Assembly: GCA_964187785.1 (NCBI GenBank) | Contig: OZ076409.1 | Span: 8,558,001-8,622,000, forward strand | Source of the DNA: Amphiscolops sp. MND2022 | Lineage: Eukaryota | DNA: 64,000 nucleotides | Reading direction: 5' to 3' | Shown: positions 10,435 through 40,293 of the stretch, piece by piece | Layout of the letters: each line of letters begins with the position of its first letter | How positions within the stretch are numbered: position 1 is the stretch's first letter | Position numbers and translations under genes: made by a program | The notes under the pieces: generated by a model | The model's input: only the letters and a program-made list of their open reading frames with translations | What the model was told of the DNA's origin: nothing | Database searches by the model: none

Positions 10435-11056
10435 CGTGGACGGCAAAACGAAGAGTCCAGTAGGCGGGAAAGTGTTAAAAAGAGAAAAAAGCTACTAACG
10501 ATTGGATGAGCGTCGTCTTCAGTCGGGTGTTGGTTGGTGGTTAATTAGTGGTTAATGATGTTAGAGAATGCGGAAGGGTTGTCGTTACATAAGTTTTCTC
10601 AAAGTCAAAAAAACTAGAATATTGCACGGTGTCCACCCTCTGTAGTAGAACTTTGTGCGATACTCAACAAAGTAACCTAAAGTAAAGAAAACTGGAACCA
10701 CGCTTATCGTCGATTCAACTTAGTCAGACTGTTTTACCCAAACCTTATTGATAACCTAATGTGACGAATATCAGAATGATGCTAAAACTTTACGTGTAAT
10801 TAAATGGAAATGTTCACAATTAAATCCTAATTTCTTAAAGCTGGAATGAGTTGGAAAAAAAATGAAGGAAGTTTTTAAAAAGTTTCAATTAGGCCTGAAA
10901 ACTTTCTAGTTACGCCGCTTTTTAGCCAGATAGTTCCTTGTAAGAAACTGTGTATAGTTTCTTGTTAGAAACTGCGGAGTTTATTTACTTAATAATCAAA
11001 ACAGAAAGTGTATAATACAAAACAAAAATGCCTCTTATTTGGAGTTTTAAAATAAA

Positions 11057-11175
11057 GTGAACAACTGAAGGCACTCAGGTCTCCCAAATTGTTCACAATA
11101 ACAGCGCTGTAACTTTATTGCTTCGAGTTTTTTTGGCCAGTGGCTGAAGGCACTCAGGTCTCCCAAACCACTGAC
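11057..11175 (-). ncRNA. Two copies of a conserved-loop stem-loop motif at the 3' end of the RPA-like gene
   Basis: Loop GAAGGCACTCAGGTCTCCCA (11067-11086, 11146-11165) closed by different 10-bp stems GTGAACAACT/AATTGTTCAC and GCCAGTGGCT/AACCACTGAC; minus-strand AATAAA at 11114-11119. Confidence 0.6.
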
Positions 11176-12258
11176 CACTGCAACATCCGTTCCTCAAGAA
11201 GTCTGGGGGTTTGCTGTTGTTCCACTCGTCTCGGGGGTTGCTGTTGTTCCACTCGTCTGGGGGCTGCTGTAACTCCTTCTCCTCTGTACATCTTCGCCTT
11301 CTGTTCGTCTGTCATCTCCTTCTCCGGTTCCAGTCTCGCGATGTGGAAGTTCTTGTTTTCCACGGCTGTTCCTTCCTCGTCCACAGCGGATTTAAACCAA
11401 CCTAAAATCCTAAATCCCTCCCCTGTATTTATTTCCCTAACCAAATCTTGAACAAATGTATCCAATTGAAACCGATCAATACTGTCCGATTCAGCCTTAA
11501 ATCTCCTAACCTCTCGACTTACAAAAAAATCCGTTGATTGAGATGAATAGATAGATAAAAAGTCTTCGTTGTGCACGTTTTCATTCAACTCCGGACAGGT
11601 GAACTCAAAAAAAGGACCCAATTTTTCTTGCCGTTCGACTCAAGACATCCGCACGGCTCGTGTTATGTCTGACCGTCGCACAGTTTGCCAGCACAGACGT
11701 TGTCTGCGATGACGGCAGAGTCGACCTTGAGTTGCTTGGTCACGAACGAGAAAAAACGAAATTCCAATGAAGACCCTTCAACGTCGTAAGGGGGTAGCGT
11801 GATTTGGTTGATGGCGGCTGTCGTCGGAATGAGTGGCTCTCTTGTTGAAATCAGCGGCGTTCCTCCTCTTGAAAGTTGTCCTTCGATGTTGGGCTTGATT
11901 ATCGTTACCACCGATCCAGGCTTGAGGTTCTCAAAATATCGAAAGAGGGTCCTTGATTCCTCACTGTTGGCGCTGAATAAGGCAATTACTGTGGACGTTC
12001 CAGGCTCTCCTAATACCAAGAACCGGTGGTATTTCTCCAACTCCATCTTCCTTCCTCCTTGATTGTAATTCTTTGTCATCTTTGTGTAGTTGATCTTTTT
12101 GTTGGCTGGGTAACATATAGTATTACTGCAGTCAACATGTTCAGTCGTGGGGTGGCAGTATCTGGATGAAGCATGGCTTCCAACGTGATCAAAGTGAAGT
12201 TTGCGAGCAAAGCTTGGGCTTGTGCAATGGACAAATTGGCTTTGAAGAAACCAGGCAT
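11154..12258 (-). pseudogene. OB-fold/C4-zinc-ribbon protein (divergent RPA70-like ssDNA-binding candidate), ~365 codons, disrupted
   Basis: Three ORF pieces (12258-12076, 12079-11663, 11621-11154) joined by 2 frameshifts and a TAA; read-through gives VCAGKLCDGQT*HEPCGC; LKPGSVVTIIKPNI resembles OB-fold strands. Confidence 0.45.
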
Positions 12259-12389
12259 GTTTGATCTGTGAAGTAAACTCTACCGTTGACTCGAAACTAC
12301 GATATAATTTTAGAAATTTCTAAGGCTACTGATATGACGACAGACTACCTTTCCATTATATACAAACAAGTAATTTAATAGAAGAGTTA

Positions 12390-13283: not shown

Positions 13284-13907
13284 TTAGCCGTAAAAGCGAA
13301 GTATCTTTCCGATACTCATTTTGAGGGAGTCAACTGTCTGGTGGGCAGGATCGTTAATTTTGAATGAAGAATTCGAAAGGTTTAAATCAAAATACTCAAA
13401 GTTTTGCTGTAACAAGGCATTCATTCGTAAATCGAGATCAGACTCGAACGTTCTCACAATGTCGCCCACTTTTCGATTGGTATCTGAGGGAAGTTTTATT
13501 GAATCTTCTTTCTTTCGCCGCACTAAAACAACAACAAAATGTGAGGGACGACAGAGTTCTTGCAAAACTTGTAAATGATTAATAACTTCATTCGGGGTTA
13601 AGACAGACGCATTTGGAGGGGCATGAGGAGGCAAAGTTAACGAATTCATGATACAGTCATGGTATACTACTACGGTGTGGGGACGAAATGAGAGGGCATC
13701 GTTGAAAATATTGCACAGGTTCTTTGCAGGATCTGGATGTTGGAATCTGGCTCCACTGGCGGCGAAATTCTTGTAGACTATCTGAGGGGGGACTTGAGGA
13801 CAGTGACGGCGGTTCCTACATGGCTCCAGGCACGTGCAAGTTTCCCACGGCTGCCTCTCAAAAGAGACGAGGTTGCTTGCACCAACAAGAGCGACACGAG
13901 AAACCAT
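13284..13907 (-). CDS. SGNH/GDSL-hydrolase-fold protein, 207 aa, intact
   Basis: Block I VALVGASN, block II NFAASGA, block III VVVYHDCIMNSL, block V DPAH followed by a C-terminal helix. Confidence 0.65.
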   Translation of the reverse strand: MVSRVALVGASNLVSFERQPWETCTCLEPCRNRRHCPQVPPQIVYKNFAASGARFQHPDPAKNLCNIFNDALSFRPHTVVVYHDCIMNSLTLPPHAPPNASVLTPNEVINHLQVLQELCRPSHFVVVLVRRKKEDSIKLPSDTNRKVGDIVRTFESDLDLRMNALLQQNFEYFDLNLSNSSFKINDPAHQTVDSLKMSIGKILRFYG

Positions 13908-14189
13908 ACTTTTAACCTGAAGAGCAGGTACTGAATGAAGTTTCCATGTTTGTGTTTGAGATTTCGACCAATTTTAGGAGCCGATAGGCGCGGAAATTAA
14001 CAATCTCTCTACATCCTATTCTAAACCTACAACCTTTCAAAAAACGTGAAGTACAAAAAACAAGTGAGGTTTACGACAATCATTTCCGAAATCTTCTTTT
14101 GGCGTTCTGGACCGTCTTCATCTTCTTTTCTTCTTCTTTGTTTGATCGATCTATTATATATGTTACTGAAATAGATATTAAATAATCTC

Positions 14190-14757
14190 ATCCGTTCTTC
14201 TTGTCTTCTTCATCTGGACGCAACTACTATAAATATTACTATTATAGATATTAATTATTCTCATCTTCCGAATCTTCTTTTCTTCTTCATCTGGACGCAA
14301 CTACTATAAATATTACTACTATAAATAATAATTATTCTCATCTTCCGAATCTTCTTTCTTCTTCATCTGGACGCAACTACTATAAATATTACTAATATAA
14401 ATAAAAATAATAATTATTCTCATCTTCCGAATCTTCTTTCTTCTTCATCTGGACGCAACTACTATAATATTACTATCATACATATTAATATTCTCATCTT
14501 CCGAATCTTCTTTCTGCTTCATCTGGACGCAACTACTATAAATATTACTACTATAAATAATAATCATTCTCATCTTCCGAATCTTCTTTCTTCTTCATCT
14601 GGACGCAACTACTATAATATTACTATTATACATATTAATATTCTCATCTTCCGAATCTTCTTTCTTCTTCATCTGGACGCAACTACTATAAATATTACTA
14701 TTATACATATTAATTATTCTCATCTTCCGAATCTTCTTTCTTCTTCATCTGGACGCT
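14190..14757. repeat. Minisatellite, ~75-bp unit, ~8 copies
   Basis: TTCTTCATCTGGACGCAACTACTATAAATATTACTA...TTCTCATCTTCCGAATCTTCTTT repeated. Confidence 0.93.
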
Positions 14758-14984
14758 CTGGTATAAACACTAGTTTGAATGTATCCAAAAACGTCTCAAT
14801 GCTCAACTCCACTCATTCTCACTACGTAAGGCAAAAGAATGGTTAAGTTTTAGAAGAAGTCAATTAAAGTCTGGATTTTAGAGTTTTAGTCAAAAAGTGC
14901 AAGTCAAAAAAGTCAAGTTTTGGGAAAGTCCGGTTTTGGTCTGAGAATTCACATTTTAGAATTTCACGATCTTTATTTAATTAG

Positions 14985-15594
14985 AGTGTGTCAGCGTGGA
15001 AGGCACTAAGGGCTACACGTGCTGCTACACTGGTTAGAAGTGATCAGTCTTTTTTTAATATGAAATGTGTATAAGCTTGGAAGGCTCAAAGGGGCTACAC
15101 AAGCTCATACACTGTAAGTCTGTATTGTCGTCTCCTGCTGTTCTGCTCCTCGTGTCGTCTGCTTCTGCTCTCGGTGTGTTTCGTTTACTTTTTTTTACAA
15201 AACAAGTGACTGGAGGCACTCAGGTCTCCCAAGCCACTTGCCAACCGATACCACACACTTTTTACATTTTAAGATGTTTCATTTTACATTTAAAGACAAG
15301 TGACAGAAGGCACTCTGGTCTCCCATGCCACTTGCCAACCACTAACCATTTTAAACAAGAATTTTTACATTTAAAGACAAGTGACAGAAGGCACTCTGGT
15401 CTCCCATGCCACTTGCCAACCACTAACCATTTTAAACAAGAATTTTTACATTTAAAGACAAGCGACAGAAGGCACTCTGGTCTCCCATGCCACTTGCCAA
15501 CCGATACCAACACACTTTTTACTTTTTACAACGGTTCATTTTACAATTTGAGGACAAGTGACAGAAGGCACTCAGGTCTCCCATGCCACTTGCC
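14985..15594 (-). ncRNA. Array of seven conserved-loop stem-loops in the 3' region of the helicase-nuclease gene (includes an 81-bp tandem triplet)
   Basis: Hairpins at 14985-15031, 15067-15112, 15201-15242, 15295-15336, 15376-15417, 15457-15498, 15553-15594; loops G(A/G)AGGC-N~12-CA; minus-strand AATAAA at 14972-14977. Confidence 0.6.
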
Positions 15595-17735
15595 AACCAC
15601 TAACCTTTTAACCTGTTGCTTCACAATGGACAATTTTAATGAGGCAGATGGCTCAAAAGGGCAACATACCTCGATAGTGAATTTTCCAAAATTGATAATT
15701 TTAGATGGATCGAAATTCCCCGCACTGGGACGATCGCGGCGTTCGAACATTTCATTGTGAATTGCGCTCTCAAAATCGCGGCGCGAAAACATTGACGCAA
15801 AATTGCACACGCAACCAGCGACAGCCCAAGGCAAACGATGCGATGTCTTGGTAAAATTAGATCCGTTGCCGCTGTTGTGTTCCGACAGCCGTGTCAAAAG
15901 AGCGCGTTCTGTCTGTCCTACATAAAAACATTCAGGCGACGTCGGGTTGAGGCTAACTAAAAGGTAAACAAAACCGCCGGGTGTTCTGGGTATGTTTTTG
16001 TTGAATGGTTCAAAAGCCATTTTCGAGATGTTAATTGGCTGAACAATGCCACCTAATCGCGAGTTGGTTCTGATTTTGTCTAACAGACTGAAAAGACGTT
16101 CTTCGCGCAAATCTCTATTTTCAAAAATTGACTTGATCGCGCCTAACGTAGCTGGCTTATCTTCGACAAAAGTGAGGTTTTTCAACTGTTTCACTCGACT
16201 CACTATGACGAAGACCTGAGACGTCATCCACAACGCATAGCTACTGTCAGTTGCGGAAATGAACGTCGCCAGCTTGTCGAACGTGTCACCCGTGAGTTTG
16301 TGTGTTGTCATGGCCACATTGTTCATCAACGGTATCTGGATCCTTCTGACTGAGTTCTTCTTGAAGGACTGCACGAAACCGGTTTGCTGCGAAAGAGTCA
16401 CTGAGCGCCAGTTCAGGTAGTCCTCGTGATCCAGCATCGCCTGAGTGATGTCAACGTCACCACCACTAGTGTCAGGGATGAACACTGTGACCGAGTCACC
16501 GGTAGGGACCTCATGGACTACACCAACCTGTCCTTGAGACAACTGCTCACTTTCCATATTAACTGTGACCCTTACCAAAGCCTTTGAGTAAACAATGAGG
16601 TGCTTGGGCTCGTTCACTTTGTCGCTCAGGTGGTTACCTACTTGACGAGAGTCGGTCTGATTCCACACTGAGCTCTTGGACAAACAGATTTCGTCAGTGG
16701 CCTCGAAGATCCTGAAAGCAGTTCCGGACTCGCGTACTCGCTGAATGTGGCTTTCGAATTCTTTTTGCTCAGCTTTCCGCTTTCCGAAAACACGCATGAC
16801 ACACGGGTCGTCCAGATCAGCTCAACTTTCCTTGAAAGTGCACTTTGCTTCCAGAATTGCCAGAATCTCGGCAACTGCAGGGGCATCGATGGGACGTCTC
16901 TACATGTGTCGAAGAACTGTTTGGCCTGCTTCATCTGTCATGCGAACGAAGTGCCCCAGAAAGAACAACGCGAAGTTGGTCAACAGAACAGGCGAGAGAA
17001 AGATGTCATTGCCTTCGATGGATGGCAGTTGCATTTGATCACCGCTAGCAATCACCAGAACGCCACCGAAAGGCAAGGTGGTCTGCTTCAACTCCTGGAG
17101 CACAATGTCCATTGCAGACCACTGTTCGGCGCTGATCAAGCTGACTTCTTCCACGAACAGCACTTCCAGGGCCAGGAGGAGCATCTTCTTCTCATTCCTG
17201 TGATCCAGCTCGTTCAACGCTTGTTCAGCCATCTTGATCGGAGAGCCAGAAGATGAGGGTGGCAAGCAGAACAATTTGTGGATGTGCTCACCACCGAAAT
17301 GGATTGACCTCCTCGAAGCTAAACTTGTAACCAAACAAAACAAACCTTTCGAAAGCGCATACCCTAACGCCATTGTTAGTACGTGAGTTTTACCTGTACC
17401 AGGAGGACCTAAAATCAACTGATGTCTGTTAAACCGGTGACCTGAAAACAAACTTTCAATGATTAAATTTTTCAGAGTTTCTAAAATTTGGGACTGCTCC
17501 TGCAAAGACTCAGCTGACTGGAAAACATTTGCAATGAGGTCAGCAGACCAGTTCGAAGGTGTTTCTTTGGTCACTGTTTCAAAATCGTTAGAAGATGGAA
17601 AATTCGGTAAATTTTTTTTTTGCGTCAACGACTTAATGATGTTAACTTGTGACTGACGAAGCAACTTCTTGGCCTTTTCCTCTAGTGCTTCAGTCAAAGT
17701 GTCCATCGTCGTGATTGGCAAGCCTTCATTGCCAA
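15541..17735 (-). pseudogene. PIF1-family SF1B helicase fused to C-terminal GIY-YIG nuclease; 5'-truncated, two in-frame nonsense codons
   Basis: Motifs ILGPPGTGKT, GGEHIHKLF, VLFVEEVSLIS, PFGGVLVIASGDQMQLP, RIQIPL..VAMTTHKLTGDTF, QVFVIVSRV; then FVYLLVS...FYVGQT...RLSEHNSG...PW; ORFs 16900-18024 and 15541-16797 are in one frame, separated by TAG (16900-16902) and a TGA in KES*ADL. Confidence 0.85.
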
Positions 17736-17740
17736 TGTTC

Positions 17741-18170
17741 GTCCACGCCCACGAACAAGCCGGAGGCGAATACCAGACTCGCCACTCAGCACACCATGCA
17801 CGACTCGCGGGTACGCTAATGAAGGACGTCCTTGGAGGTATGTGCAGAAAGATACCATGTGCACTTGGATTGCCATGGAAAGAGGCTTGGTTGGATATCT
17901 GCATACACCGACAGCGCCGAAGATAGGGGCCAAGACAGGAGCCATGGTGGCCACAGAATCCTCCACCTCGGCCAGTGTCAGGTCGGCAATCTGTTGCGGC
18001 ATTGGGAACCCTGCTGTCTCCCATGGGATTTGACTGTCAGAATTATGCAATGGTTGAGACTGGTCCACGCCCACGAACAAGCCGGAGGCGAATACCAGAG
18101 TTGAATACAGCCAGTGTTGGACAGACGCACGCATGCGTTCCAATTGGGCCTCCGAAAACATTTCGAAAAT
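17741..18170 (-). pseudogene. Fragment of an unrelated orphan ORF abutting the truncated helicase
   Basis: EMFSEAQLERMRASVQHWLYSTLVFASGLFVGVD...; exact 37-bp direct repeat at 17741-17777 and 18063-18099. Confidence 0.35.
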
Positions 18171-21100
18171 TGAATTTGTAGTTGCAATGCGACAGAATGA
18201 GTTTAAGCAATCGCTGGTACTTGCTAATTTCTTCTCGGGTATTGTAACTTGATTGTGATTTGTAGTTGAAACGTTCGCGTGTGACACTTCCCGCCCTGCG
18301 CTGGAAAATTTCTCGTTTCCACTCGACGCGCGAGAAAAATTGCTGATTTTCCCGCGCCGCGCGGGAAACTGCTCAATAATCCGTTAGTTGTTGAGAAATT
18401 GTGACTATAAGGCTGCCGCGCGGGAAATTCTCTTCGTGTTCTACCTATGAGACAGACATTTCCCGCCGCGCGTGGGAAATTCTCTTCGTGTTCTACGAAT
18501 GAGACAGACATTTCCACCTCTGACACTGTCGCCATGTCGATTTCGTCTGGATAGAGATAATCTCCTTCCTCTGCGACATCAGCGATGTTGGTTAGGGGTG
18601 ATGGGGTGTTATCGTTTATTTCTCTGGAAAATCAAAATCAAACGATAATAACTTCAGTAATTTTCCTCTGAATTTTCTTCGATAAAAAACCAACATCGAA
18701 AGATCTTGCACTGGTTCCGACAAATCGAATTGGGGAAATTCCAGGTTGCTGATGCTAATTGGTGAAGACATTCTAAAACAGACAAAAAAGATGAGATTGA
18801 AGATTTTTTCAGGTGATTGAAATGAGGAGTTGATTGCAAAAACAACTAACGTTTCTGCTGAATTTATAGAGTCTGCTGAATCTGCTGAACGTTGCTGAGT
18901 CTTGAGCTAATGAATTTGTAAAGTCTGCTGAATCTGTTGAACGTTGCTGAGACTGGAGCTGCTGAATTTGTAGTTGCAATGCGACAGAATGAGTTTAAGC
19001 AATCGCTGATACTTGCTAATTTCTTCTCGGGTATTGTAACTTGATTGTGATTTTTAGTTGAAACGTTCGCGTGGGACACTTCCCGCCCCGCGCGGGAAAA
19101 TTGCTCGTTTCCACTCGACGCGCGAGAAGAATTGCTGATTTTCCCGCGCCGCGCGGGAAACTGCTCAATAATCCGTTAGTTGTTGAGAAATTGTGACCAT
19201 AAGGCTGCCGCGCGGGAAAGTCTCTTCGTGTTCTACCTATGAGATAGACATTTCCCCTCCGCGCGCGGGAAATTCTCTTCGTGTTCTACTAATGATACAG
19301 ACATTTCCACCTCTGACACTGTCGCCATGTCGATTTCGTCCGGATAGAGATAATCTCCTTCCTCTGCGACATCAGCGATGTTGGTTAGGGGTGATGGGGT
19401 GTTATCGTTTATTTCTCTGGAAATTCAAAATCAAACGATAATAACTTCAGTAATTTTCCTCAGAATTTTCTTCGATAAAAAACCAACATCGAAAGATCTT
19501 GCACTGGTTCCGACAAATCGAATTGGGGAAATTCCAGGTTGCTGATGCTAATTGGTGAAGACATTCTAAAACAGACAAAAAAGATGAGATTGGAGATTTT
19601 TTCAGTTGATTGAATTGAGGAGTTGATTGCAAAAACAACTAACGTTTCTGCTGAATTTGTAGAGTCTGCTGAATCTGCTGAACGTTGCTGAGTCTTGAGC
19701 TGCTGAATTTGTAAAGTCTGCTGAATCTGCTGAACGTTGCTGACTCTGGAGCTGCTGAATTTGTAGTTGCAATGCGACAGAATGAGTTTAAGCAATCGCT
19801 GATACTTGCTAATTTTTTCTCGGCTATTGTAACTTGATTGTGATTTGTAGTTGAAACGTTCGCGTGGGACATTTCCCGCCCCGCGCGGGAAAATTGCCCG
19901 TTTTCACTCGACGCGCGAGAAAAATTGCTGTTTTTCCCGCGCCGCGCGGGAAACTGCTCAATAATCCGTTAGTTGTTGTGAGAAATTGTGACCATAAGGC
20001 TGCCGTGCGGGAAATTCTCTTCGTGTTCTACCTATGAGACAGACATTTCCCGCCGCGCGCGGGAAATTCTCTTCGTGTTCTACTAATGAGACAGACATTT
20101 CCACCTCTGACACTGTCGCCATGTCGATTTCGTCTGGATAGAGATAATCTCCTTCCTCTGCGACATCAGCGACGTTGGTTACCCGTGATGGGGTGTTATC
20201 GTTTATTTCTCTGGAAAATCAAAATCAAACGATAATAACTTCAGTAATTTTCCTCAGAATTTTATTCGATAAAAAACCAACATCGAAAGATCTTGCACTG
20301 GTTCCGACAAATCGAATTGGGGAAATTCCAGGTTGCTGATGCTAATTGGTGAAGACATTCCAAAACAGACAAAAAAGATGAGATTGAAGATTTTTTCAGT
20401 TGATTGAAATGAGGAGTTGATTGCAAAAACAACTAACGTTTCTGCTGAATTTGTAGAGTCTGTTGAACGTTGCTGAGTCTTGAGCTGCTGAATTTGTAAA
20501 GTCTTCTGAATCTGCTGAACGTTGCCGAGTCTGGAGCTGCTGAATTTGTAGTTGCAATGCGACAGAATGAGTTTAAACAATCGCTGATACTTGCTAATTT
20601 CTTCTCGGGTATTGTAACTTGATTGTGATTTGTAGTTGAAACGTTCGCATGGGACACTTCCCGCCCCGCGCGGGAAAATTGCTCGTTTCCACTCGACGCG
20701 CGAGAAAAATTGCTGATTTTCCCGCGCCGCGCGGGAAACTGCTCAATAATCCGTTAGTTGTTGTGAGAAATTGTGACCATAAGGCTGCCGCGCGGGAAAT
20801 TCTCTTCGTGTTCTACTAATGAGACACACATTTCCACCTCTGATACTGTCGTCATGTCGATTTCGTCTGGATAGAGGTGATCTCCTTCCTCTGCGACATC
20901 AGCGATGTTGGTTAGGGGTGATGGGGTGTTATCGTTTATTTCTCTGGAAAATCAAAATCAAACGATAATAACTTCAGTAATTTTCCTCAATTTTCTTCGA
21001 TAAAAAACCAACATCGAAAGATCTTGCACTGGTTCCGACAAATCGAATTGGGGAAATTCCAGGTTGCTGATGCTAATTGGTGAAGACATTCTAAAACAGA

Positions 21101-24100
21101 CAAAAAAGATGAGATTGGAGATTTTTTCAGTTGATTGAATTGAGGAGTTGATTGCAAAAACAACTAACGTTTCTGCTGAATTTGTAGAGTCTGCTGAATC
21201 TGCTGAACGTTGCTGAGTCTTGAGCTGCTGAATTTGTAAAGTCTGCTGAATCTGCTGAACGTTGCTGACTCTGGAGCTGCTGAATTTGTAGTTGCAATGC
21301 GACAGAATGAGTTTAAGCAATCGCTGATACTTGCTAATTTTTTCTCGGCTATTGTAACTTGATTGTGATTTGTAGTTGAAACGTTGGCGTGGGACATTTC
21401 CCGCCCCGCGCGGGAAAATTGCCCGTTTTCACTCGACGCGCGAGAAAAATTGCTGTTTTTCCCGCGCCGCGCGGGAAACTGCTCAATAATCCGTTAGTTG
21501 TTGTGAGAAATTGTGACCATAAGGCTGCCGTGCGGGAAATTCTCTTCGTGTTCTACCTATGAGACAGACATTTCCCGCCGCGCGCGGGAAATTCTCTTCG
21601 TGTTCTACTAATGAGACAGACATTTCCACCTCTGACACTGTCGCCATGTCGATTTCGTCTGGATAGAGATAATCTCCTTCCTCTGCGACATCAGCGACGT
21701 TGGTTACCCGTGATGGGGTGTTATCGTTTATTTCTCTGGAAAATCAAAATCAAACGATAATAACTTCAGTAATTTTCCTCAGAATTTTATTCGATAAAAA
21801 ACCAACATCGAAAGATCTTGCACTGGTTCCGACAAATCGAATTGGGGAAATTCCAGGTTGCTGATGCTAATTGGTGAAGACATTCCAAAACAGACAAAAA
21901 AGATGAGATTGAAGATTTTTTCAGTTGATTGAAATGAGGAGTTGATTGCAAAAACAACTAACGTTTCTGCTGAATTTGTAGAGTCTGTTGAACGTTGCTG
22001 AGTCTTGAGCTGCTGAATTTGTAAAGTCTTCTGAATCTGCTGAACGTTGCCGAGTCTGGAGCTGCTGAATTTGTAGTTGCAATGCGACAGAATGAGTTTA
22101 AACAATCGCTGATACTTGCTAATTTCTTCTCGGGTATTGTAACTTGATTGTGATTTGTAGTTGAAACGTTCGCATGGGACACTTCCCGCCCCGCGCGGGA
22201 AAATTGCTCGTTTCCACTCGACGCGCGAGAAAAATTGCTGATTTTCCCGCGCCGCGCGGGAAACTGCTCAATAATCCGTTAGTTGTTGTGAGAAATTGTG
22301 ACCATAAGGCTGCCGCGCGGGAAATTCTCTTCGTGTTCTACTAATGAGACACACATTTCCACCTCTGATACTGTCGTCATGTCGATTTCGTCTGGATAGA
22401 GGTGATCTCCTTCCTCTGCGACATCAGCGATGTTGGTTAGGGGTGATGGGGTGTTATCGTTTATTTCTCTGGAAAATCAAAATCAAACGATAATAACTTC
22501 AGTAATTTTCCTCAATTTTCTTCGATAAAAAACCAACATCGAAAGATCTTGCACTGGTTCCGACAAATCGAATTGGGGAAATTCCAGGTTGCTGATGCTA
22601 ATTGGTGAAGACATTCTAAAACAGACAAAAAAGATGAGATTGGAGATTTTTTCAGTTGATTGAATTGAGGAGTTGATTGCAAAAACAACTAACGTTTCTG
22701 CTGAATTTGTAGAGTCTGCTGAATCTGCTGAACGTTGCTGAGTCTTGACCTGTTGAATTTGTAAAGTGTGCTTAATCTGCTGAACGTTGCTGAGTCTGGA
22801 GCTGCTGAACTTGTAGTTGCAATGCGACAGAATGAGTTTAAGCAATCGCTGATACTTGCTAATTTCTTCTCGGGTATTGTAACTTGATTGTGATTTGTAG
22901 TTGAAACGATCGCGTTAGACACTTACCGCCTCGCGCGGGAAAACTGCTCGTTTCCACTCGACGCGCGAGAAAAATTGCTGATTTTCCCGCGCCGCGCGGG
23001 AAACTGCTCAATAACTCGTTAGTTGTTGAGAAATTGTGACCATAAGGCTGCCGCGCGGGAAAGTCTCTTCGTGTTCTACCTATGAGACAGACATTTCCCG
23101 CCGCGCGCGGGAAATTCTCTTCGTGTTCTATTAATGAGACAGACATTTCCACCTCTGACACTGTCGTCATGTCGATTTCGTCTGGATAGAGATAATCTCC
23201 TTCCTCTGCGACATCAGCGATGTTGGTTAGGGGTGATGGGGTGTTATCGTTTATTTCTCTGGAAAATCAAAATCAAACGATAATAACTTCAGTAATTTTC
23301 CTCAGAATTTTCTTCGATAAAAAACCAACATCGAAAGATCTTGCACTGGTTCCGACAAATCGAATTGGGGAAATTCCAGGTTGCTGATGCTAATTGGTGA
23401 AGACATTCTAAAACAGACAAAAAAAGATGAGATTGAAGATTTTTTCAGTTGATTGAATTGAGGAGTTGATTGCAAAAACAACTAACGTTTCTGCTGAATT
23501 TGTAGAGTCTGCTGAATCTGCTGAACGTTGCTGAGTCTTGACCTGTTGAATTTGTAAAGTGTGCTTAATCTGCTGAACGTTGCTGAGTCTGGAGCTGCTG
23601 AACTTGTAGTTGCAATGCGACAGAATGAGTTTAAGCAATCGCTGATACTTGCTAATTTCTTCTCGGGTATTGTAACTTGATTGTGATTTGTAGTTGAAAC
23701 GATCGCGTTGGACACTTACCGCCTCGCGCGGGAAAACTGCTCGTTTCCACTCGACGCGCGAGAAAAATTGCTGATTTTCCCGCGCCGCGCGGGAAACTGC
23801 TCAATAACTCGTTAGTTGTTGAGAAATTGTGACCATAAGGCTGCCGCGCGGGAAAGTCTCTTCGTGTTCTACCTATGAGACAGACATTTCCCGCCGCGCG
23901 CGGGAAATTCTCTTCGTGTTCTATTAATGAGACAGACATTTCCACCTCTGACACTGTCGTCATGTCGATTTCGTCTGGATAGAGATAATCTCCTTCCTCT
24001 GCGACATCAGCGATGTTGGTTAGGGGTGATGGGGTGTTATCGTTTATTTCTCTGGAAAATCAAAATCAAACGATAATAACTTCAGTAATTTTCCTCAGAA

Positions 24101-27100
24101 TTTTCTTCGATAAAAAACCAACATCGAAAGATCTTGCACTGGTTCCGACAAATCGAATTGGGGAAATTCCAGGTTGCTGATGCTAATTGGTGAAGACATT
24201 CTAAAACAGACAAAAAAAGATGAGATTGAAGATTTTTTCAGTTGATTGAATTGAGGAGTTGATTGCAAAAACAACTAACGTTTCTGCTGAATTTGTAGAG
24301 TCTGCTGAATCTGCTGAACGTTGCTGAGTCTTGAGCTGCTGAATTTGTAAAGTCTGCTGAACGTTGCTGAGTCTGGAGCTGCTGAATTTGTAGTTGCAGT
24401 GCGACAGAATGAGTTTAAGCAATCGCTGATACTTGCTAATTTTTTCTCGGGTATCGTAACTTGATTGTGATTTGTAGTTGAAACGTTCGCGTGGGACATT
24501 TCCCGCCCCGCGCGGGAAAATTGCTCGTTTTCACTCGACGCGCGAGAAAAATTGCTGTTTTTCCCGCGCCGCGCGGGAAACTGCTCAATAATCCGTTAGT
24601 TGTTGTGAGAAATTGTGACCATAAGGCTGCCGCGCGGGAAATTCTCTTCGTGTTCTACCTATGAGACAGACATTTCCCGCCGCGCGCGGGAAATTCTCTT
24701 CGTGTTCCACTAATGAGACAGACATTTCCACCTCTGACACTGTCGCCATGTCGATTTCGTCTGGATAGAAATAATCTCCTTCCTCTGCGACATCAGCGAC
24801 GTTGGTTACGGGTGATGGGGTGTTATCGTTTATTTCTCTGGAAATTCAAAATCAAACGATAATAACTTCAGTAATTTTCCTCAGAATTTTATTCGATAAA
24901 AAACCAACATCGAAAGATCTTGCACTGGTTCCGACAAATCGAATTGGGGAAATTCCAGGTTGCTGATGCTAATTGGTGAAGACATTCTAAAACAGACAAA
25001 AAAGTTGAGATTGAAGATTTTTTCAGTTGATTGAAATGAGGAGTTGATTGCAAAAACAACTAACGTTTCTGCTGAATTTGTAGAGTCTGCTGAACGTTGC
25101 TGAGTCTTGAGCTGCTGAATTGGTAAAGTCTTCTGAATCTGCTGAACGTTGCCGAGTCTGGAGCTGCTGAATTTGTAGTTGCAATGCGACAGAATGAGTT
25201 TAAACAATCGCTGATACTTGCTAATTTCTTCTCGGGTATTGTAACTTGATTGTGACTTGTAGTTGAAACGTTCGCGTGGGACACTTCCCGCCCCGCGCGG
25301 GAATATTGCTCGTTTCCACTCGACGCGCGAGAAAAATTGCTGATTTTCCCGCGCCGCGCAGGAAACTGCTCAATAATCCGTTAGTTGTTGTGAGAAATTG
25401 TGACCATAAGGCTGCCGCGCGGGAAATTCTCTTCGTGTTCTACTAATGAGACAGACATTTCCACCTCTGACACTGTCGCCATGTCGATTTCGTCTGGATA
25501 GAGATAATCTCCTTCCTCTGCAACATCGGCGATGTTGGTTAGGGGTGATGGGGTGCTATCGTTTATTTCTCTGCAAAATCAAAATCAAACGATAATAACT
25601 ACAGTAATTTTCCTCAGAATTTTCTTCGATAAAAAACCAACACCGGAAGATCTTGCACTGGTTCCGGCAAATCGAATTGGGGAAATTCCAGGTTGCTGAT
25701 GCTAATTGGTGAAGACATTCTAAAACAGACAAAAAAGATGAGATTGAAGATTTTTCAGTTGATTGAATTAAGGAGTTGATGGCAAAAACAACTAACGTTT
25801 CTGCTGAATTTGTAGAGTCTGCTGAATCTGCTGAACGTTGCTGAGTCTTGAGCTGCTGAATTTGTAAAGTCTGCTGAATCTGCTGAACGTTGCTGAGTCT
25901 TGACCTGCTGAATTTGTAGTTGCAATGCGACAGAATGAGTTTAAGCAATCGCTGATACTTGCTAATTTTTTCTCGGGTATTGTAACTTGATTGTGATTTG
26001 TAGTTGAAACGATCGCGTGGGACACTTCCCGCCCCGCGCGGGAAAATTGCTCGTTTCCACTCGACGCGCGAGAAAAATTGCTGATTTTCCCGCGCCGCGC
26101 GGGAAACTGCTCAATAACCCGTTAGATGTTGTGAGAAATTGTGACCATAAGGCTGCCGCGCGGGAAATTCTCCTGGTGTTCTACCTATGAGAAAGACATT
26201 TCCCGCCGCGCGCGGGAAATTCTCTTCGTGTTCTACTAATGAGACAGACATTTCCACCTCTGACACTGTCGCCATGTCGATTTCGTCTGGATAGAGATAA
26301 TCTCCTTCCTCTGCAACATCAGCGATGTTGGTTAGGGGTGATGGGGTGTTATCGTTTATTTCTCTGCAAAATCAAAATCAAACGATAATAACTACAGTAA
26401 TTTTCCTCAGAATTTTCTTCGATAAAACAACACCGGAAGATCTTGCACTGGTTCTGACAAATCGAATTGGGGAAATTCCAGGTTGCTGATGCTTATTGGT
26501 GAAGACATTCTAAAACAGACAAAAAAGATGAGATTGAAGATTTTTTCAGTTGATTGAAATGAGGAGTTGATTGCAAAAACAACTAACGTTTCTGCTGAAT
26601 TTGTAGAGTCTGCTGAACGTTGCTGAGTCTTGAGCTGCTGAATTTGTAAAGTCTTCTGAATCTGCTGAACGTGCCGAGTCTGGAGCTGCTGAATTTGTAG
26701 TTGTAATGCGACAGAATGAGTTTAAACAATCGCTGATACTTGCTAATTTCTTCTCGGATATTGTAACTTGATTGTGATTTGTAGTTGAAACGTTCGCGTG
26801 GGACACTTCCCGCCCCGCGCGGGAAAATTGCTCGTTTTCACTCGACGCGCGAGAAAAATTTGCTGATTTTCCCGCGCCGCGCGGGGAAACTGCTCAATAA
26901 TCCGTTAGTTGTTGTGAGAAATTGTGACCATAAGGCTGCCGCGCGGGAAAGTCTCTTCGTGTTCTACCTATGAGACAGACATTTTCCGCCGCGCGCGGGA
27001 AATTCTCTTCGTGTTCTACTAATGAGACAGACATTCCCACCTCTGACACTGTCGCCATGTCGATTTCGTCTGGATAGAGATAATCTCCTTCCTCTGCGAC

Positions 27101-30100
27101 ATCAGCGATGTTGGTTAGGGGTGATGGGGGTGTTATCGTTTATTTCTCTGGAAAATCAAAATCAAACGATAATAACTTGAGTAATTTTCCTCAGAATTTT
27201 CTTCGATGAAAAACCAACATCGAAAGATCTTGCACTGGTTCCGACAAATCGAATTGGGGAAATTCCAGGTTGCTGATGCTAATTGGTGAAGACATTCTAA
27301 AACAGACAGAAAAGATGAGATTGAAGATTTTTTCAGTTGATTGAATTGAGGAGTTGATTGCAAAAACAACTAACGTTTCTGCTGAATTTGTAGAGTCTGC
27401 TGAATCTGCTGAACGTTGCTGAGTCTTGAGCTGCTGAATTTGTAAAGTCTGCTGAACGTTGCTGAGTCTGGAGCTGCTGAATTTGTAGTTGCAATGCGAC
27501 AGAATGAGTTTAAGCAATCGCTGATACTTGCTAATTTTTTCTCGGGTATTGTAACTTGATTGTGATTTGTAGTTGAAACGTTCGCGTGGGACATTTCCCG
27601 CCCCGCGCGGGAAAATTGCTCGTTTTCACTCGACGCGCGAGAAAAATTGCTGTTTTTCCCGCGCCGCGCGGGAAACTGCTCAATAATCCGTTAGTTGTTG
27701 TGAGAAATTGTGACCATAAGGCTGCCGCGCGGGAAATTCTCTTCGTGTTCTACCTATGAGACAGACATTTCCCGCCGCGCGCGGGAAATTCTCTTCGTGT
27801 TCTACTAATGAGACAGACATTTCCACCTCTGACACTGTCGCCATGTTGATTTCGTCTGGATAGAGATAATCTTCTTCCTCTGCGACATCAGCGACGTTGG
27901 TTACGGGTGATAGGGTGTTATCGTTTATTTCTCTGGAAAATCAAAATCAAACGATAATAACTACAGTAATTTTCCTCAGAATTTTCTTCGATAAAAAACC
28001 AACACCGGAAGATCTTGCACTGGTTCCGACAAATCGAATTGGGGAAATTCCAGGTTGCTGATGCTTATTGGTGAAGACATTCTAAAACAGACAAAAAAGA
28101 TGAGATTGAAGATTTTTTCAGTTGATTGAAATGAGGAGTTGATTGCAAAAACAACTAACGTTTCTGCTGAATTTGTAGAGTCTGCTGAACGTTGCTGAGT
28201 CTTGAGCTGCTGAATTTGTAAAGTCTTCTGAATCTGCTGAACGTGCCGAGTCTGGAGCTGCTGAATTTGTAGTTGTAATGCGACAGAATGAGTTTAAACA
28301 ATCGCTGATACTTGCTAATTTCTTCTCGGATATTGTAACTTGATTGTGATTTGTAGTTGAAACGTTCGCGTGGGACACTTCCCGCCCCGCGCGGGAAAAT
28401 TGCTCGTTTTCACTCGACGCGCGAGAAAAATTTGCTGATTTTCCCGCGCCGCGCGGGGAAACTGCTCAATAATCCGTTAGTTGTTGTGAGAAATTGTGAC
28501 CATAAGGCTGCCGCGCGGGAAATTCTCTTCGTGTTCTACCTATGAGACAGACATTTCCCGCCGCGCGCGGGAAATTCTCTTCGTGTTCTACTAATGAGAC
28601 AGACATTTCCACCTCTGACACTGTCGCCATGTCGATTTCGTCTGGATAGAGATAATCTTCTTCCTCTGCGACATCAGCGACGTTGGTTACGGGTGATAGG
28701 GTGTTATCGTTTATTTCTCTGGAAAATCAAAATCAAACGATAATAACTACAGTAATTTTCCTCAGAATTTTCTTCGATAAAAAACCAACACCGGAAGATC
28801 TTGCACTGGTTCCGACAAATCGAATTGGGGAAATTCCAGGTTGCTGATGCTTATTGGTGAAGACATTCTAAAACAGACAAAAAAGATGAGATTGAAGATT
28901 TTTTCAGTTGATTGAAATGAGGAGTTGATTGCAAAAACAACTAACGTTTCTGCTGAATTTGTAGAGTCTGCTGAACGTTGCTGAGTCTTGAGCTGCTGAA
29001 TTTGTAAAGTCTTCTGAATCTGCTGAACGTGCCGAGTCTGGAGCTGCTGAATTTGTAGTTGTAATGCGACAGAATGAGTTTAAACAATCGATGATACTTG
29101 CTAATTTCTTCTCGGATATTGTAACTTGATTGTGATTTGTAGTTGAAACGTTCGCGTGGGACACTTCCCGCCCCGCGCGGGAAAATTGCTCGTTTTCACT
29201 CGACGCGCGAGAAAAATTTGCTGATTTTCCCGCGCCGCGCGGGGAAACTGCTCAATAATCCGTTAGTTGTTGTGAGAAATTGTGACCATAAGGCTGCCGC
29301 GCGGGAAAGTCTCTTCGTGTTCTACCTATGAGACAGACATTTTCCGCCGCGCGCGGGAAATTCTCTTCGTGTTCTACTAATGAGACAGACATTCCCACCT
29401 CTGACACTGTCGCCATGTCGATTTCGTCTGGATAGAGATAATCTCCTTCCTCTGCGACATCAGCGATGTTGGTTAGGGGTGATGGGGGTGTTATCGTTTA
29501 TTTCTCTGGAAAATCAAAATCAAACGATAATTTCAGTAATTTTCCTCAGAATTTTCTTCGATGAAAAACCAACATCGAAAGATCTTGCACTGGTTCCGAC
29601 AAATCGAATTGGGGAAATTCCAGGTTGCTGATGCTAATTGGTGAAGACATTCTAAAACAGACAAAAAAGATGAGATTGAAGATTTTTTCAGTTGATTGAA
29701 TTGAGGAGTTGATTGCAAAAACAACTAACGTTTCTGCTGAATTTGTAGAGTCTGCTGAATCTGCTGAACGTTGCTGAGTCTTGAGCTGCTGAATTTGTAA
29801 AGTCTGCTGAACGTTGCTGAGTCTGGAGCTGCTGAATTTGTAGTTGCAATGCGACAGAATGAGCTTAAGCAATCGCTGATACTTGCTAATTTTTTCTCGG
29901 GTATTGTAACTTGATTGTGATTTGTAGTTGAAACGTTCGCGTGGGACATTTCCCGCCCCGCGCGGGAAAATTGCTCGTTTTCACTCGACGCGCGAGAAAA
30001 ATTGCTGTTTTTCCCGCGCCGCGCGGGAAACTGGTCAATAATCCGTTAGTTGTTGTGAGAAATTGTGACCATAAGGCTGCCGCGCGGGAAATTCTCTTCG

Positions 30101-33100
30101 TGTTCTACCTATGAGACAGACATTTCCCGCCGCGCGCGGGAAATTCTCTTCGTGTTCTACTAATGAGACAGACATTTCCACCTCTGACACTGTCGCCATG
30201 TCGATTTCGTCTGGATAGAGATAATCTCCTTCCTCTGCGACATCAGCGACGTTGGTTACGGGTGATAGGGTGTTATCGTTTATTTCTCTGGAAAATCAAA
30301 ATCAAACGATAATAACTTCAGTAATTTTCCTCAGAATTTTATTCGATAAAAAACCAACATCGAAAGATCTTGCACTGGTTCCGACAAATCGAATTGGGGA
30401 AATTCCAGGTTGCTGATGCTAATTGGTGAAGACATTCTAAAACAGACAAAAAAGATGAGATTGAAGATTTTTTCAGTTGATTGCAAAACAACTAACGTTT
30501 CTGCTGAATTTGTAGAGTCTGCTGAACGTTGCTGAGTCTTGAGCTGCTGAATTTGTAAAGTCTTCTGAATCTGCTGAACGTTGCCGAGTCTGGAGCTGCT
30601 GAATTTGTAGTTGCAATGCGACAGAATGAGTTTAAGCAATCGCTGATACTTGCTAATTTTTTCTCGGGTATTGTAACTTGATTGTGATTTGTAGTTGAAA
30701 CGTTCGCGTGGGACATTTCCCGCCCCGCGCGGGAAAATTGCTCGTTTTCACTCGACGCGCGAGAAAAATTGCTGTTTTTCCCGCGCCGCGCCGGAAACTG
30801 CTCAATAATCCGTTAGTTGTTGTGAGAAATTGTGACCATAAGGCTGCCGCGCGGGAAATTCTCTTCGTGTTCTACCTATGAGACAGACATTTCCCGCCGC
30901 GCGCGGGAAATTCTCTTCGTGTTCCACTAATGAGACAGACATTTCCACCTCTGACACTGTCGCCATGTCGATTTCGTCTGGATAGAAATAATCTCCTTCC
31001 TCTGCGACATCAGCGACGTTGGTTACGGGTGATGGGGTGTTATCGTTTATTTCTCTGGAAAATCAAAATCAAACGATAATAACTTCAGTAATTTTTCTCA
31101 GAATTTTCTTCGATAAAAAACCAACATCGAAAGATCTTGCACTGGTTCCGACAAATCGAATTGGGGAAATTCCAGGTTGCTGATGCTAATTGGTGAAGAC
31201 ATTCTAAAACAGACAAAAAAAGATGAGATTGAAGATTTTTTCAGTTGATTGAATTGAGGAGTTGATTGCAAAAACAACTAACGTTTCTGCTGAATTTGTA
31301 GAGTCTGCTGAATCTGCTGAACGTTGCTGAGTCTTGAGCTGCTGAATTTGTAAAGTCTGCTGAACGTTGCTGAGTCTGGAGCTGCTGAATTTGTAGTTGC
31401 AATGCGACAGAATGAGTTTAAGCAATCGCTGATACTTGCTAATTTTTTCTCGGGTATTGTAACTTGATTGTGATTTGTAGTTGAAACGTTCGCGTGGGAC
31501 ATTTCCCGCCCCGCGCGGGAAAATTGCTCGTTTTCACTCGACGCGCGAGAAAAATTGCTGTTTTTCCCGCGCCGCGCCGGAAACTGCTCAATAATCCGTT
31601 AGTTGTTGTGAGAAATTGTGACCATAAGGCTGCCGCGCGGGAAATTCTCTTCGTGTTCTACCTATGAGACAGACATTTCCCGCCGCGCGCGGGAAATTCT
31701 CTTCGTGTTCCACTAATGAGACAGACATTTCCACCTCTGACACTGTCGCCATGTCGATTTCGTCTGGATAGAAATAATCTCCTTCCTCTGCGACATCAGC
31801 GACGTTGGTTACGGGTGATGGGGTGTTATCGTTTATTTCTCTGGAAAATCAAAATCAAACGATAATAACTTCAGTAATTTTCCTCAGAATTTTATTCGAT
31901 AAAAAACCAACATCGAAAGATCTTGCACTGGTTCCGACAAATCGAATTGGGGAAATTCCAGGTTGCTGATGCTAATTGGTGAAGACATTCTAAAACAGAC
32001 AAAAAAGATGAGATTGAAGATTTTTTCAGTTGATTGAAATGAGGAGTTGATTGCAAAAACAACTAACGTTTCTGCTGAATTTGTAGAGTCTGCTGAACGT
32101 TGCTGAGTCTTGAGCTGCTGAATTGGTAAAGTCTTCTGAATCTGCTGAACGTTGACGAGTCTGGAGCTGCTGAATTTGTAGTTGCAATGCGACAGAATGA
32201 GTTTGAAAAATCGCTGATACTTGCTAATTTCTTCTCGGGTATTGTAACTTGATTGTGATTTGTAGTTGAAACGTTCGCGTGGGACACTTCCCGCCCCGCG
32301 CGGGAATATTGCTCGTTTCCACTCGACGCGCGAGAAAAATTGCTGATTTTCCCGCGCCGCGCGGGAAACTGCTCAATATTCCGTTAGTTATTGTGAGAAA
32401 TTGTGACCATAAGGCTGCCGCGCGGGAAATTCTCTTCGTGTTCTACTAATGAGACAGACATTTCCACCTCTGACACTGTCGTCATGTCGATTTCGTCTGG
32501 ATAGAGGTGATCTCCTTCCTCTGCGACATCAGCGATGTTGGTTAGGGGTGATGGGGTGTTATCGTTCATTTCTCTGGAAAATCAAAATCAAACGATAATA
32601 ACTTCAGTAATTTTCCTCAGAATTTTATTCGATAAAAAACCATTATCGAAAGATATTGCACTGGTTCCGACAAATCGAATTGGGGGAAATTCCAGGTTGC
32701 TGATGCTAATTGGTGAAGACATTCTAAAACACACAAAAAAGATGAGATTGAAGATTTTTTCAGTTGATTGAAATGAGGAGTTGATTGCAAAAACAACTAA
32801 CGTTTCTGCTGAATTTGTAGAGTCTGCTGAATCTGCTGAACGTTGCTGAGTCTTGACCTGCTGAATTTGTAAAGTTTGCTTAATCTGCTGAACGTTGCTG
32901 AGTCTGGAGCTGCTGAACTTGTAGTTGCAATGCGACAGAATGAGTTTAAGCAATCGCTGATACTTGCTAATTTTTTCTCGGGTATTGTAACTTGATTGTG
33001 ATTTGTAGTTGAAACGATCGCGTGGGACACTTCCCGCCCCGCGCGGGAAAATTGCGTTTCCACTCGACGCGCGAGAAAAATTGCTGATTTTCCCGCGCCG

Positions 33101-39100: not shown

Positions 39101-40293
39101 GAATTTGTAAAGTCTGCTGAATCTGCTGAACGTTGCTGAGTCTGGAGCTGCTGAATTTGTAGTTGCAATGCGACAGAATGAGTTTAAGCAATCGCTGATA
39201 CTTGCTAATTTTTTCTCGGGTATTGTAACTTGATTGTGATTTGTAGTTGAAACGTTCGCGTGGGACATTTCCCGCCCCGCGCGCGAAAATTGCTCGTTTT
39301 CACTCGACGCGCGAGAAAAATTGCTGATTTTCCCGCGCCGCGCGGGAAACTGCTCAATAATCCGTTAGTTGTTGTGAGAAATTGTGACCATAAGGCTGCC
39401 GCGCGGGAAATTCTCTCCGTGTTCTACTAATGAGACAGACATTTCCACCTCTGACACTGTCGCCATGTCGATTTCGTCTGGATAGAGATAATCTCCTTCC
39501 TCTGCGACATCAGCGATGTTGGTTAGGGGTGATGGGGTGTTATCGTTTATTTCTCTGGAAAATCAAAATCAAACGATAATTACTACAGTAATTTTCCTCA
39601 GAATTTTCTTCGATAAAAAACCAACACCGGAAGATCTTGCACTGGTTCCGACAAATCGAATAGGGGAAATTCCAGGTTGCTGATGCTAATTGGTGAAGAC
39701 ATTCTAAAACAGACAAAAAAGATGAGATTGAAGATTTTTCAGTTGATTGAATTAAGGAGTTGATGGCAAAAACAACTAACGTTTCTGCTGAATTTGTAGA
39801 GGCTGCTGAATCTGCTGAACGTTGCTGAGTCTTGAGCTGCTGAATTTGTAAAGTCTGCTGAATCTGCTGAACGTTGCTGAGTCTGGAGCTGCTGAATTTG
39901 TAGTTGCAATGCGACAGAATGAGTTTAAGCAATCGCTGATACTTGCTAATTTTTTCTCGGGTATTGTAACTTGATTGTGATTTGTAGTTGAAACGTTCGC
40001 GTGGGACATTTCCCGCCCCGCGCGCGAAAATTGCTCGTTTTCACTCGACGCGCGAGAAAAATTGCTGATTTTCCCGCGCCGCGCGGGAAACTGCTCAATA
40101 ATCCGTTAGTTGTTGTGAGAAATTGTGACCATAAGGCTGCCGCGCGGGAAATTCTCTCCGTGTTCTACTAATGAGACAGACATTTCCACCTCTGACACTG
40201 TCGTCATGTCGATTTCGTCTGGATAGAGGTGATCTCCTTCCTCTGCGACATCAGCGATGTTGGTTAGGGGTGATGGGGTGTTATCGTTTATTT
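18171..40293. repeat. Satellite array, ~29 units of ~735-795 bp (~22.1 kb)
   Basis: Marker TTTCGTC(T/C)GGATA counted 29 times from ~18541 to ~40213; length variants from a 52-bp subrepeat and 9-bp CTGCTGAAT-type subrepeats. Confidence 0.97.

Follow-up and report, generated by a model that had tools for sequence, protein, structure and literature searches.

In known Helitrons, termination and circle formation need no more than the Rep tyrosines. In Penelope-like retroelements, the target is nicked by a GIY-YIG nuclease. Published schemes recognize either four Helitron variants (PMC8788227) or two clades (PMC11417382), and DUF6570 is described as a marker of HLE2 (PMC11417382). Target nicking by the Helentron AP endonuclease was put forward as a hypothesis (PMC4067079), and the function of this enzyme was given as "not determined yet" (PMC8788227). 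The capture of a GIY-YIG domain by the Sphagnum HLE2 family HelenSM92 is reported in a single sentence (PMC11417382). The domain list for Helitron-like elements in the accessible text of the same paper does not name GIY-YIG, and the accessible parts of PMC3627910, PMC13565253 and PMC6431247 name it only in other elements. The HelenSM92 sentence was all that we found on GIY-YIG or SLX1 in Helitron-like elements in the accessible portions of the literature; Repbase may hold such families. Among GIY-YIG enzymes, the substrates of Slx1 are junctions, flaps and splayed arms, and SLX1 fails on double-stranded, single-stranded, gapped and nicked DNA (PMC4407285), while HIGLE (At-HIGLE) cuts branched DNA without the partner SLX4 (PMC9071465).

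We analyzed a 64,000-nucleotide stretch of the Amphiscolops sp. MND2022 assembly (contig OZ076409.1, positions 8,558,001 to 8,622,000), hereafter the window. An initial annotation had proposed a fusion of a PIF1 helicase to a GIY-YIG nuclease, interrupted by two nonsense codons. A single minus-strand frame, running from ~17739 to a TAA at 15543-15541, indeed encodes a PIF1 helicase and then a GIY-YIG domain, and Pfam recovered both: PIF1 at E 5.5e-11 in the frame 16903-18036, i.e., before two in-frame stops (TAG at 16902-16900 and TGA at 16824-16822), and GIY-YIG at E 8.4e-6 and 26.4 bits (cut-off 22.6) in the frame 15544-16821, i.e., after them. Structures of the SLX1 lineage were the nearest to the GIY-YIG domain. 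The plus strand over the feature is closed, without an open frame.

The two domains did not turn out to be a stand-alone fusion; they form the C-terminal part of a 2,369-aa Rep/helicase transposase. Bases 17739-15730 correspond to residues 1668-2337 of this HUH-Rep/PIF1/GIY-YIG protein, and the window copy is 97.0% and 96.7% identical over 670 aa to the intact relatives P0163 and P0164 (tblastn), both of which carry Helitron_like_N, the HUH motif, Y-x3-Y, PIF1 and GIY-YIG in a single frame. A family HMM matched the window through model positions 1716-2413 of 2457 and gave no second significant match there, and neither tblastn nor the HMM found a Rep remnant elsewhere in the window. We are highly confident that the window copy is a Helitron-like rolling-circle transposon that died recently and has lost its 5' part. 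With the same high confidence, we assign to the full transposase the layout Cys-rich N-terminus (the N-terminal stretch spans 1,000 residues), HUH Rep, PIF1 helicase and SLX1-like GIY-YIG; a separate gene, probably for an OB-fold protein, comes after it. The features of the transposase copy are as follows:

15730..17739, minus strand: C-terminal 670 codons of a Helitron-like Rep/PIF1/GIY-YIG transposase, pseudogene (tblastn, family HMM)
16162..17430, minus strand: PIF1-type SF1B helicase (Pfam PIF1, motif census, model of the 77%-identical P0002)
15733..15975, minus strand: SLX1-like GIY-YIG domain (Pfam, SLX1/HIGLE alignment, residue map, P0002 model)
16900..16902, minus strand: premature TAG; Trp at that position in intact relatives (alignment)
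16822..16824, minus strand: premature TGA; Trp at that position in intact relatives (alignment)
15541..15729, minus strand: read-through tail, non-homologous to relatives (comparison with intact relatives)
17741..18099, no strand assigned: truncation junction, where the 37-bp sequence 18063-18099 is exactly repeated at 17741-17777 (repeat comparison)

The two stops, initially taken as the only lesions, are accompanied by larger losses. Homology to the intact relatives starts abruptly at 17739, leaving 1,667 N-terminal residues absent, and it stops at 15730, so that the natural last 32 residues are gone from the window copy and the final ~60 codons of the frame, the read-through tail, enter non-coding hairpin repeats. 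Over ~670 columns, we counted 18 private differences in the window copy versus 3 and 5 in P0163 and P0164, suggesting that the copy has decayed, but not for long. This count and the 97% amino-acid identity agree with the recent inactivation that had been proposed. Since the stops agree with the other decay of the copy, sequencing error is an unlikely source of both. A 37-bp exact repeat adjoins the transposase break, and a tblastn search of the frame 17694-18383 found no transposase homology.

We then compared the helicase motifs with those of the relatives. All of the motifs quoted in the initial annotation were present, with Walker A at 17409, Walker B EE near 17150, HKLTG (motif V) near 16300 and VIVSRV (motif VI) near 16210; their description as unusual substitutions held only in part. 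The Walker B EE is common to 61 of 147 aligned relatives and the V-x-x-SR form of motif VI is present in most of these 147, making both family traits. The T of HKLTG is best read as private decay of the window copy because M takes its place in 12/12 close full-length relatives that reach the site. A model of the intact P0002 (77% identical to the window copy) had a pLDDT of 90, and its helicase part matched Pif1 with a Z of 29.1 and the Helitron transposase Helraiser (7lcc) with a Z of 24.9.

A search for proteins of nearly the same length gave six proteins; the full-length relatives came from a search for longer proteins. This second search returned 40 proteins, with 13 clusters of 2,143-2,370 aa that share 70-92% identity with the query P0004 and contain 147 member sequences in total, as expected of a multicopy element, and decayed fragments of the transposase were found besides these clusters. 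Among 1.84 billion representatives searched, 243 clusters matched the protein at E<=1e-30, a number that rose to 847 at E<=1e-10, counts below the cluster level resting on the best 150 matches of the 847. Within the best 150 matches, the Rep catalytic set E-H-H-Y-Y was present in 47 of the 48 proteins of at least 2,100 aa. Overall identity among members is 25-40%, and in 18 members scanned at E<=0.05 we observed Helitron_like_N in 11 and OTU in 5. The Atlas contained two clusters with PIF1 and GIY-YIG, in one of which diatoms were commonest (4 members of known phylum). Ten related metagenomic loci carry the same gene, frequently interrupted at shared places, and we infer these shared frame breaks to be spliceosomal-type interruptions; the protein of one such locus, L002, is 31-41% identical. 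The lineage is thus a large, deeply branching and barely described group of Helitron-like transposases.

The identity of the element is read from its enzyme domains, and GIY-YIG and SF1 helicases are listed for Polinton-like viruses. Both points leave some room for a gene that is no transposon at all, either a host PIF1-SLX1 fusion or a gene with a Rep from a viral, Polinton or plasmid-like replicon. However, the many divergent full-length clusters, the decayed copies that lie on long contigs, the spliceosomal-type interruptions suggested by the shared frame breaks, and motifs collinear with the Helitron Rep all argue against such a gene. Viral contigs scanned with the closest subfamily yielded one distant PIF1 only, and, a separate BEL/Pao element aside, capsid, polymerase and integrase were absent by Pfam from 21 window ORFs. 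We consider a non-transposon origin highly improbable and retain the Helitron-like identity.

We also surveyed the surroundings of the transposase copy, which contain the following features:

11154..12319, minus strand: second gene of the element, its product containing a Cys cluster and probably binding ssDNA through an OB fold (homology to an ORF in the related locus L005)
11040..11180, minus strand: two further stem-loops with the same 20-nt loop and other arms, directly past the second gene
13284..13973, minus strand: open frame of ~207 aa, SGNH/GDSL-like by eye only (ORF list)
14980..15680, minus strand: eight stem-loops whose arms vary while the 19-20-nt loop is conserved, a candidate signal of the 3' terminus or 3' UTR
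18171..40293, no strand assigned: tandem array of ~28 units of 740-793 bp, rich in TTTCCCGC/GCGGGAAA, upstream of the break

A stop near 11663 and a frameshift near 11610 disrupt the second gene. Its homologues include P0160 and, at E 8.6e-23, the ORF that follows the transposase in L005, and we assigned it to the element because of this position in L005. By Atlas language-model features, its nearest neighbors were POT1, MEIOB, CDC24 and CTC1 at 0.89-0.92, with 143-161 features shared where true family matches typically share 170. Pfam and PDB searches gave no match, and the fold model had a pLDDT of 35. The product is probably an OB-fold ssDNA-binding protein, which we treat as a lead only. 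The SGNH/GDSL-like frame, likewise without a Pfam or PDB match and with a 13-bp hairpin past it at 13213-13181, is probably a passenger of the element. No credible match was found for the ORF at 9116-9754, and a separate BEL/Pao element is also present in the window. The tandem array spans 22 kb, beyond the 37-bp repeat at the break, and any link to the element is conjectural.

Of the eight stem-loops, five lie in or beside an 81-bp tandem repeat. The same loop type occurs in two stem-loops past the transposase stop of L002; in total, we found the conserved loop in 1 of the 10 related loci, 4 of which end at or before the stop. Eight of 11 arm pairs were altered on both sides, and the covariation score was reached by 0/500 shuffles in a set that includes four nearly identical tandem copies and from which the structure itself was derived; slid controls scored lower. 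Single-strand folding z-scores of the eight hairpins ranged from -0.3 to -5.4, with some copies no better than shuffles. An ACTCnAA motif, noticed post hoc, lies 11-21 nt past 5/12 hairpins (background ~1.4% each), with CTRR in only two of these five. A search of Rfam gave no match (best E 1.8), and comparison by eye with the consensus structures of hammerhead, HDV-like and twister ribozymes, IRE and SECIS showed no fit. The hairpins may mark 3' ends formed one after another, which terminator bypass would produce (PMC6431247), or they may be 3' UTR elements.

Hairpins with compensating arms past both genes, as well as the tandem arrays that flank the window copy, would suit a nuclease that acts on the donor side or on intermediates, since SLX1-type enzymes cut such branch points. 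It might resolve rolling-circle concatemers, cut the element's own hairpins or break stalled forks to trigger copying, with no part in target choice. However, known Helitrons are described as terminating and forming circles with the Rep tyrosines alone (PMC13565253), and hairpins also follow a degenerate nuclease in L002. We regard a donor-side role as quite unlikely.

To characterize the nuclease, we mapped its motifs and residues. FVY lies at 15972, FYVG at 15927, RLSEHNSG at 15891 and PW near 15830, and the core residues Tyr (15966), Tyr (15924), Gly, Arg (15891), His and Glu (15771) are all retained. The SLX1-like character noted at the outset was borne out both by sequence and by the P0002 model. 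The solved structures nearest to the window domain by sequence belong to the SLX1 lineage (At-HIGLE, E 7e-4), the long relative P0013 matched SLX1 at E 8.4e-10, and residues 678-790 of the P0002 model matched At-HIGLE (Z 11.1, rmsd 2.8, 110 aligned) and SLX1 6seh (Z 10.1). The Arg and Glu align with Arg36 and Glu79 of Cg-Slx1. Likeness of a 110-residue catalytic domain to SLX1 does not settle substrate choice, and other GIY-YIG enzymes nick duplex DNA.

Across the lineage, a GIY-like domain lies 57-83 aa beyond helicase motif VI in 124 of the 127 proteins of sufficient length; the other three fell short of the E 1e-3 cut, and none of the 127 is a long member clearly without the domain. All six core residues are present in 92 of 131 GIY domains. 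Because of this retention and the match of Arg and Glu to Cg-Slx1, the nuclease is most likely catalytically active in most members, as far as its residues can tell. A further 28/131 domains were scored as degenerate, although at least two of them are only truncated. Degeneracy is spread over several subclades, including the sister clade of the window family, and amounts to eight changes on a 123-row FastTree, yet the Rep is intact in 6/6 long members with a degenerate GIY domain. Since degenerate domains co-occur with an intact Rep, cleavage cannot, on this reading of the residues, be essential everywhere, and the nuclease appears dispensable in some sublineages.

We considered whether the domain serves mainly as a DNA-binding module or structural cap for the helicase, cutting being incidental. 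The fold is retained at fixed spacing despite loss of Tyr, Arg, His and Glu, and the domain is clearly missing from no long member (three of 127 below the E 1e-3 cut), in keeping with such a role; however, six core residues in 92/131 domains at 25-40% identity would be hard to maintain without selection on catalysis. A binding-only role is therefore very unlikely in our assessment.

The initial annotation had also likened the GIY-YIG domain to the Helentron AP endonuclease. As a matter of architecture the analogy stands: GIY-YIG follows the helicase, in the slot of the Helentron AP endonuclease, and by analogy it is a positional and loosely functional counterpart of that enzyme. The domain could then nick ordinary duplex target DNA and set target preference, as proposed for the AP endonuclease. 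Consistent with duplex nicking, it shares its post-helicase position with the AP endonuclease in three Helentron references and retains its catalytic core in 92/131 cases; target nicking was proposed for the AP endonuclease (PMC4067079), and PMC6431247 names GIY-YIG as the endonuclease of Penelope-like retroelements. However, the closest structural matches are nucleases of branched DNA, which do not cut duplex, and catalytic residues were repeatedly lost in elements with an intact Rep, which makes duplex nicking unlikely, if the strongest of the competing functions. Because Slx1 cuts branched DNA and fails on duplex DNA, we favor the cutting of branched DNA over duplex nicking, and we also rank it above donor-side or concatemer processing and a binding-only role. 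By analogy with Slx1, the domain probably reads DNA shape rather than nicking plain duplex. Given the identity of the element, we put a role as an accessory structure-selective endonuclease on branched DNA at just under an even chance; for the element identity and this nuclease role taken together, our estimate lies slightly on the favorable side of even.

By extension from established Helitron biology, the Rep would nick one element end and remain tyrosine-bound, the PIF1 domain would peel off the strand, and the second protein would coat the displaced strand. A hairpin signal would terminate the round, and the Rep would join the strand to a circle and then to a target. Tethered behind the helicase, the GIY-YIG domain would act as an accessory structure-selective endonuclease on branched DNA. 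Its substrate might be a fork, a flap or a splayed arm, located at the target or the strand-transfer junction, and its cut might provide the target end or tidy it.

The copy in the window is no longer functional, and its importance lies in the lineage. The AP endonuclease and GIY-YIG would represent two independent endonuclease captures at the same place, suggesting a real need in rolling-circle transposition. Intact, multicopy, single-ORF transposases with mapped catalytic residues make the role of the nuclease directly testable, with sister lineages that have degenerate nuclease sites as natural controls. This class of repeats has probably been overlooked by genome annotation.

To place the lineage against known Helitron groups, we built helicase and Rep trees, a phylogeny having been suggested as a check on the initial annotation. 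Reference contigs were picked by a Rep motif and classed by Pfam content as 2 HLE1-type and 9 HLE2-type. The trees put the lineage outside the sampled HLE1 and HLE2; they are "quick" or FastTree trees with long-branch warnings, contain only 6 and 9 HLE2 rows, and were run without Repbase families and without HelenSM92. In the helicase tree, the lineage (35 rows, support 100), HLE1 (2 rows, 100) and HLE2 (6 rows, 99) formed separate clades, with no order fixed among the three; the lineage rows had been chosen for similarity to the query, which makes the monophyly of the lineage partly circular. The Rep tree was rooted with 8 phage/plasmid Reps, and in it the lineage (24 rows, 97) was sister to HLE1+HLE2 (97). 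This tree omitted 6/30 lineage rows whose HUH escaped the search pattern, five of which proved to be E-H-H-Y-Y and one, P0144, E-H-H-Y-H. The lineage was not nested in the sampled HLE2 (support 99 for the helicase and 95 for the Rep), and a topology joining it to HLE2 was not rejected (p-AU 0.17). The two HLE1 references formed their own branch in both trees (100), on thin sampling.

Profile comparisons placed the lineage Rep closest to the Helentron (HLE2) Rep (probability 99.6, E 1.4e-23, 348 columns); the match to the HLE1 Rep profile, built from 2 sequences only, was weak (33%). The region upstream of the lineage Rep matched its HLE2 counterpart at only 9.9%. By Pfam, the AP endonuclease (Exo_endo_phos) was found in 0/30 lineage members and in three reference Helentrons. 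DUF6570 was found in 0/18 (E<=0.05), 0/10 (E<=0.1) and 0/2 lineage members and in 7/8 HLE2 reference loci, the eighth of which begins past the DUF6570 region. As a tentative possibility that we consider less likely than not, the lineage may be a third major group of eukaryotic Rep-helicase transposons outside HLE1+HLE2, one that spans diatom-type protists and animals and that Helitron tools have overlooked. A terminal signal of its own would combine a variable stem, a conserved loop and ACTCnAA, and an ancestrally fused SLX1-type nuclease would direct integration to replication forks or other branched DNA. If so, sublineages without nuclease catalysis would be natural controls.

Compared with described systems, the nuclease has a catalytic domain like that of SLX1 and At-HIGLE in both sequence and fold, and its Tyr, Tyr, Arg, His and Glu are all present. 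The RING/SLX4-binding domain belongs to fungal and animal SLX1, whereas the transposase is without a RING by Pfam and ends ~45 residues past the Glu; unlike SLX1 and At-HIGLE, the lineage domain is fused to a transposase and is degenerate in about one-fifth of members. Canonical Helitrons of HLE1 (Helraiser, 7lcc) share with the lineage the Rep-PIF1 architecture and the helicase fold (Z 24.9), a hairpin near a candidate 3' end, and an OB-type gene downstream of the transposase, as is RPA in HLE1 (PMC11417382). However, the two HLE1 references are without a C-terminal nuclease, and the lineage forms a separate clade. HelenSM92, known here by description only (PMC11417382), likewise has a GIY-YIG inside a Helitron-like element. 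With Helentrons/HLE2 (PMC4067079, PMC11417382), the lineage shares a homologous HUH Rep, PIF1, an endonuclease fused past the helicase, an OTU protease in some members, and a separate ssDNA-binding-type gene. It differs from them in having GIY-YIG in place of the AP endonuclease, a longer HUH spacer (EFQ-x6-7-HxH versus EFQ-x-RGSPHxH), an HKxMG-type motif V, and no DUF6570. Overall, and judged by its enzyme domains, the lineage belongs to the Helitron superfamily and is Helentron-like in layout, yet it is not a Helentron.

The GIY-YIG domain has lost its catalytic residues and retained its fold in a number of relatives of the transposase (proteins P0008, P0009, P0012, P0035, P0037, P0047, P0113, P0129 and others), and the same state was found at the metagenomic loci L001-L006 and L008. 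We observed this catalytic loss in several subclades, with Rep intact alongside. Near the N-terminus, upstream of the OTU domain, 2 of the 48 long relatives (2,100 aa or more) and locus L005 carry a 2A-like G(I/V)ExNPGP stretch, which may have a ribosome-skipping role. Downstream of the transposase, L001 and L008 each have a small gene that looks spliced as read from sequence; the two are alike and dissimilar to the OB-like gene.

P0013 residues 63-81, P0020 residues 39-57 and L005 near 1520-1560: 2A-like stretch
L001 2480-2970 and L008 1590-2070: small spliced-looking gene

Helentron-type transposases were also found on contigs assigned to bacterial MAGs (L058-L061 and L063-L067), and HLE1-type transposases on two giant-virus MAG contigs (L044 and L054); these contigs are probably eukaryotic contamination. 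In the window itself, the frameshifted pol of a BEL/Pao retrotransposon lies among the following features and suggests an animal host.

8335-8860 and 9906-10434: duplicated 530-bp segment (95%) containing a disrupted Ser-rich frame
9116-9754: ORF of 212 aa that has a basic patch, KRRK, between the 530-bp copies
13284-13973, minus strand: open frame, SGNH/GDSL-esterase-like by eye
14120-14756: 76-bp AT-rich tandem array, separating the transposase from the next ORF
18171-40293: 22-kb tandem array, units of about 790 bp
40294-42404 and 43039-45185: 2.1-kb direct duplication (95%), adjoining the 22-kb array
55980-59735, minus strand: pol of a BEL/Pao LTR retrotransposon, with RT, Peptidase_A17, integrase zinc finger and DUF5641 domains

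The 22-kb array may be an amplified promoter. TTTCCCGC matches 59 times inside it versus 0 in the remaining window, and GCGGGAAA 91 times versus 1; both motifs are similar to E2F sites. The array stops just short of a minus-strand ATG located around 18152. At the end of the adjoining 2.1-kb duplication, GTAGCCC is present twice.

Downstream of the transposase and the second gene, the sense strand carries stem-loops of one kind, shared with locus L002.

14980-15680 and 11040-11180, minus strand: stem-loops with the conserved loop
L002 4606-4750: stem-loops with the conserved loop

All 12 lie 3' of these genes, and 5 are followed by ACTCnAA; Rfam gave nothing matching them. A perfect 13-bp hairpin with a similar loop follows the esterase-like frame, for which databases gave no match. 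Separately, 15 of 16 bases at the end of the 2.1-kb duplication are identical to one hairpin arm plus the loop start, a likeness that may be due to chance. The nuclease-degenerate loci L005 (9559-9585) and L006 (near 3875-3905) have in common a different hairpin, GCATTTT...AAATGCGAC, 3' of the transposase stop. Across the 12 stem-loops, the 18-20-nt loop is conserved while the arms vary freely, and this fixed loop on a variable stem is reminiscent of HUH replication origins.
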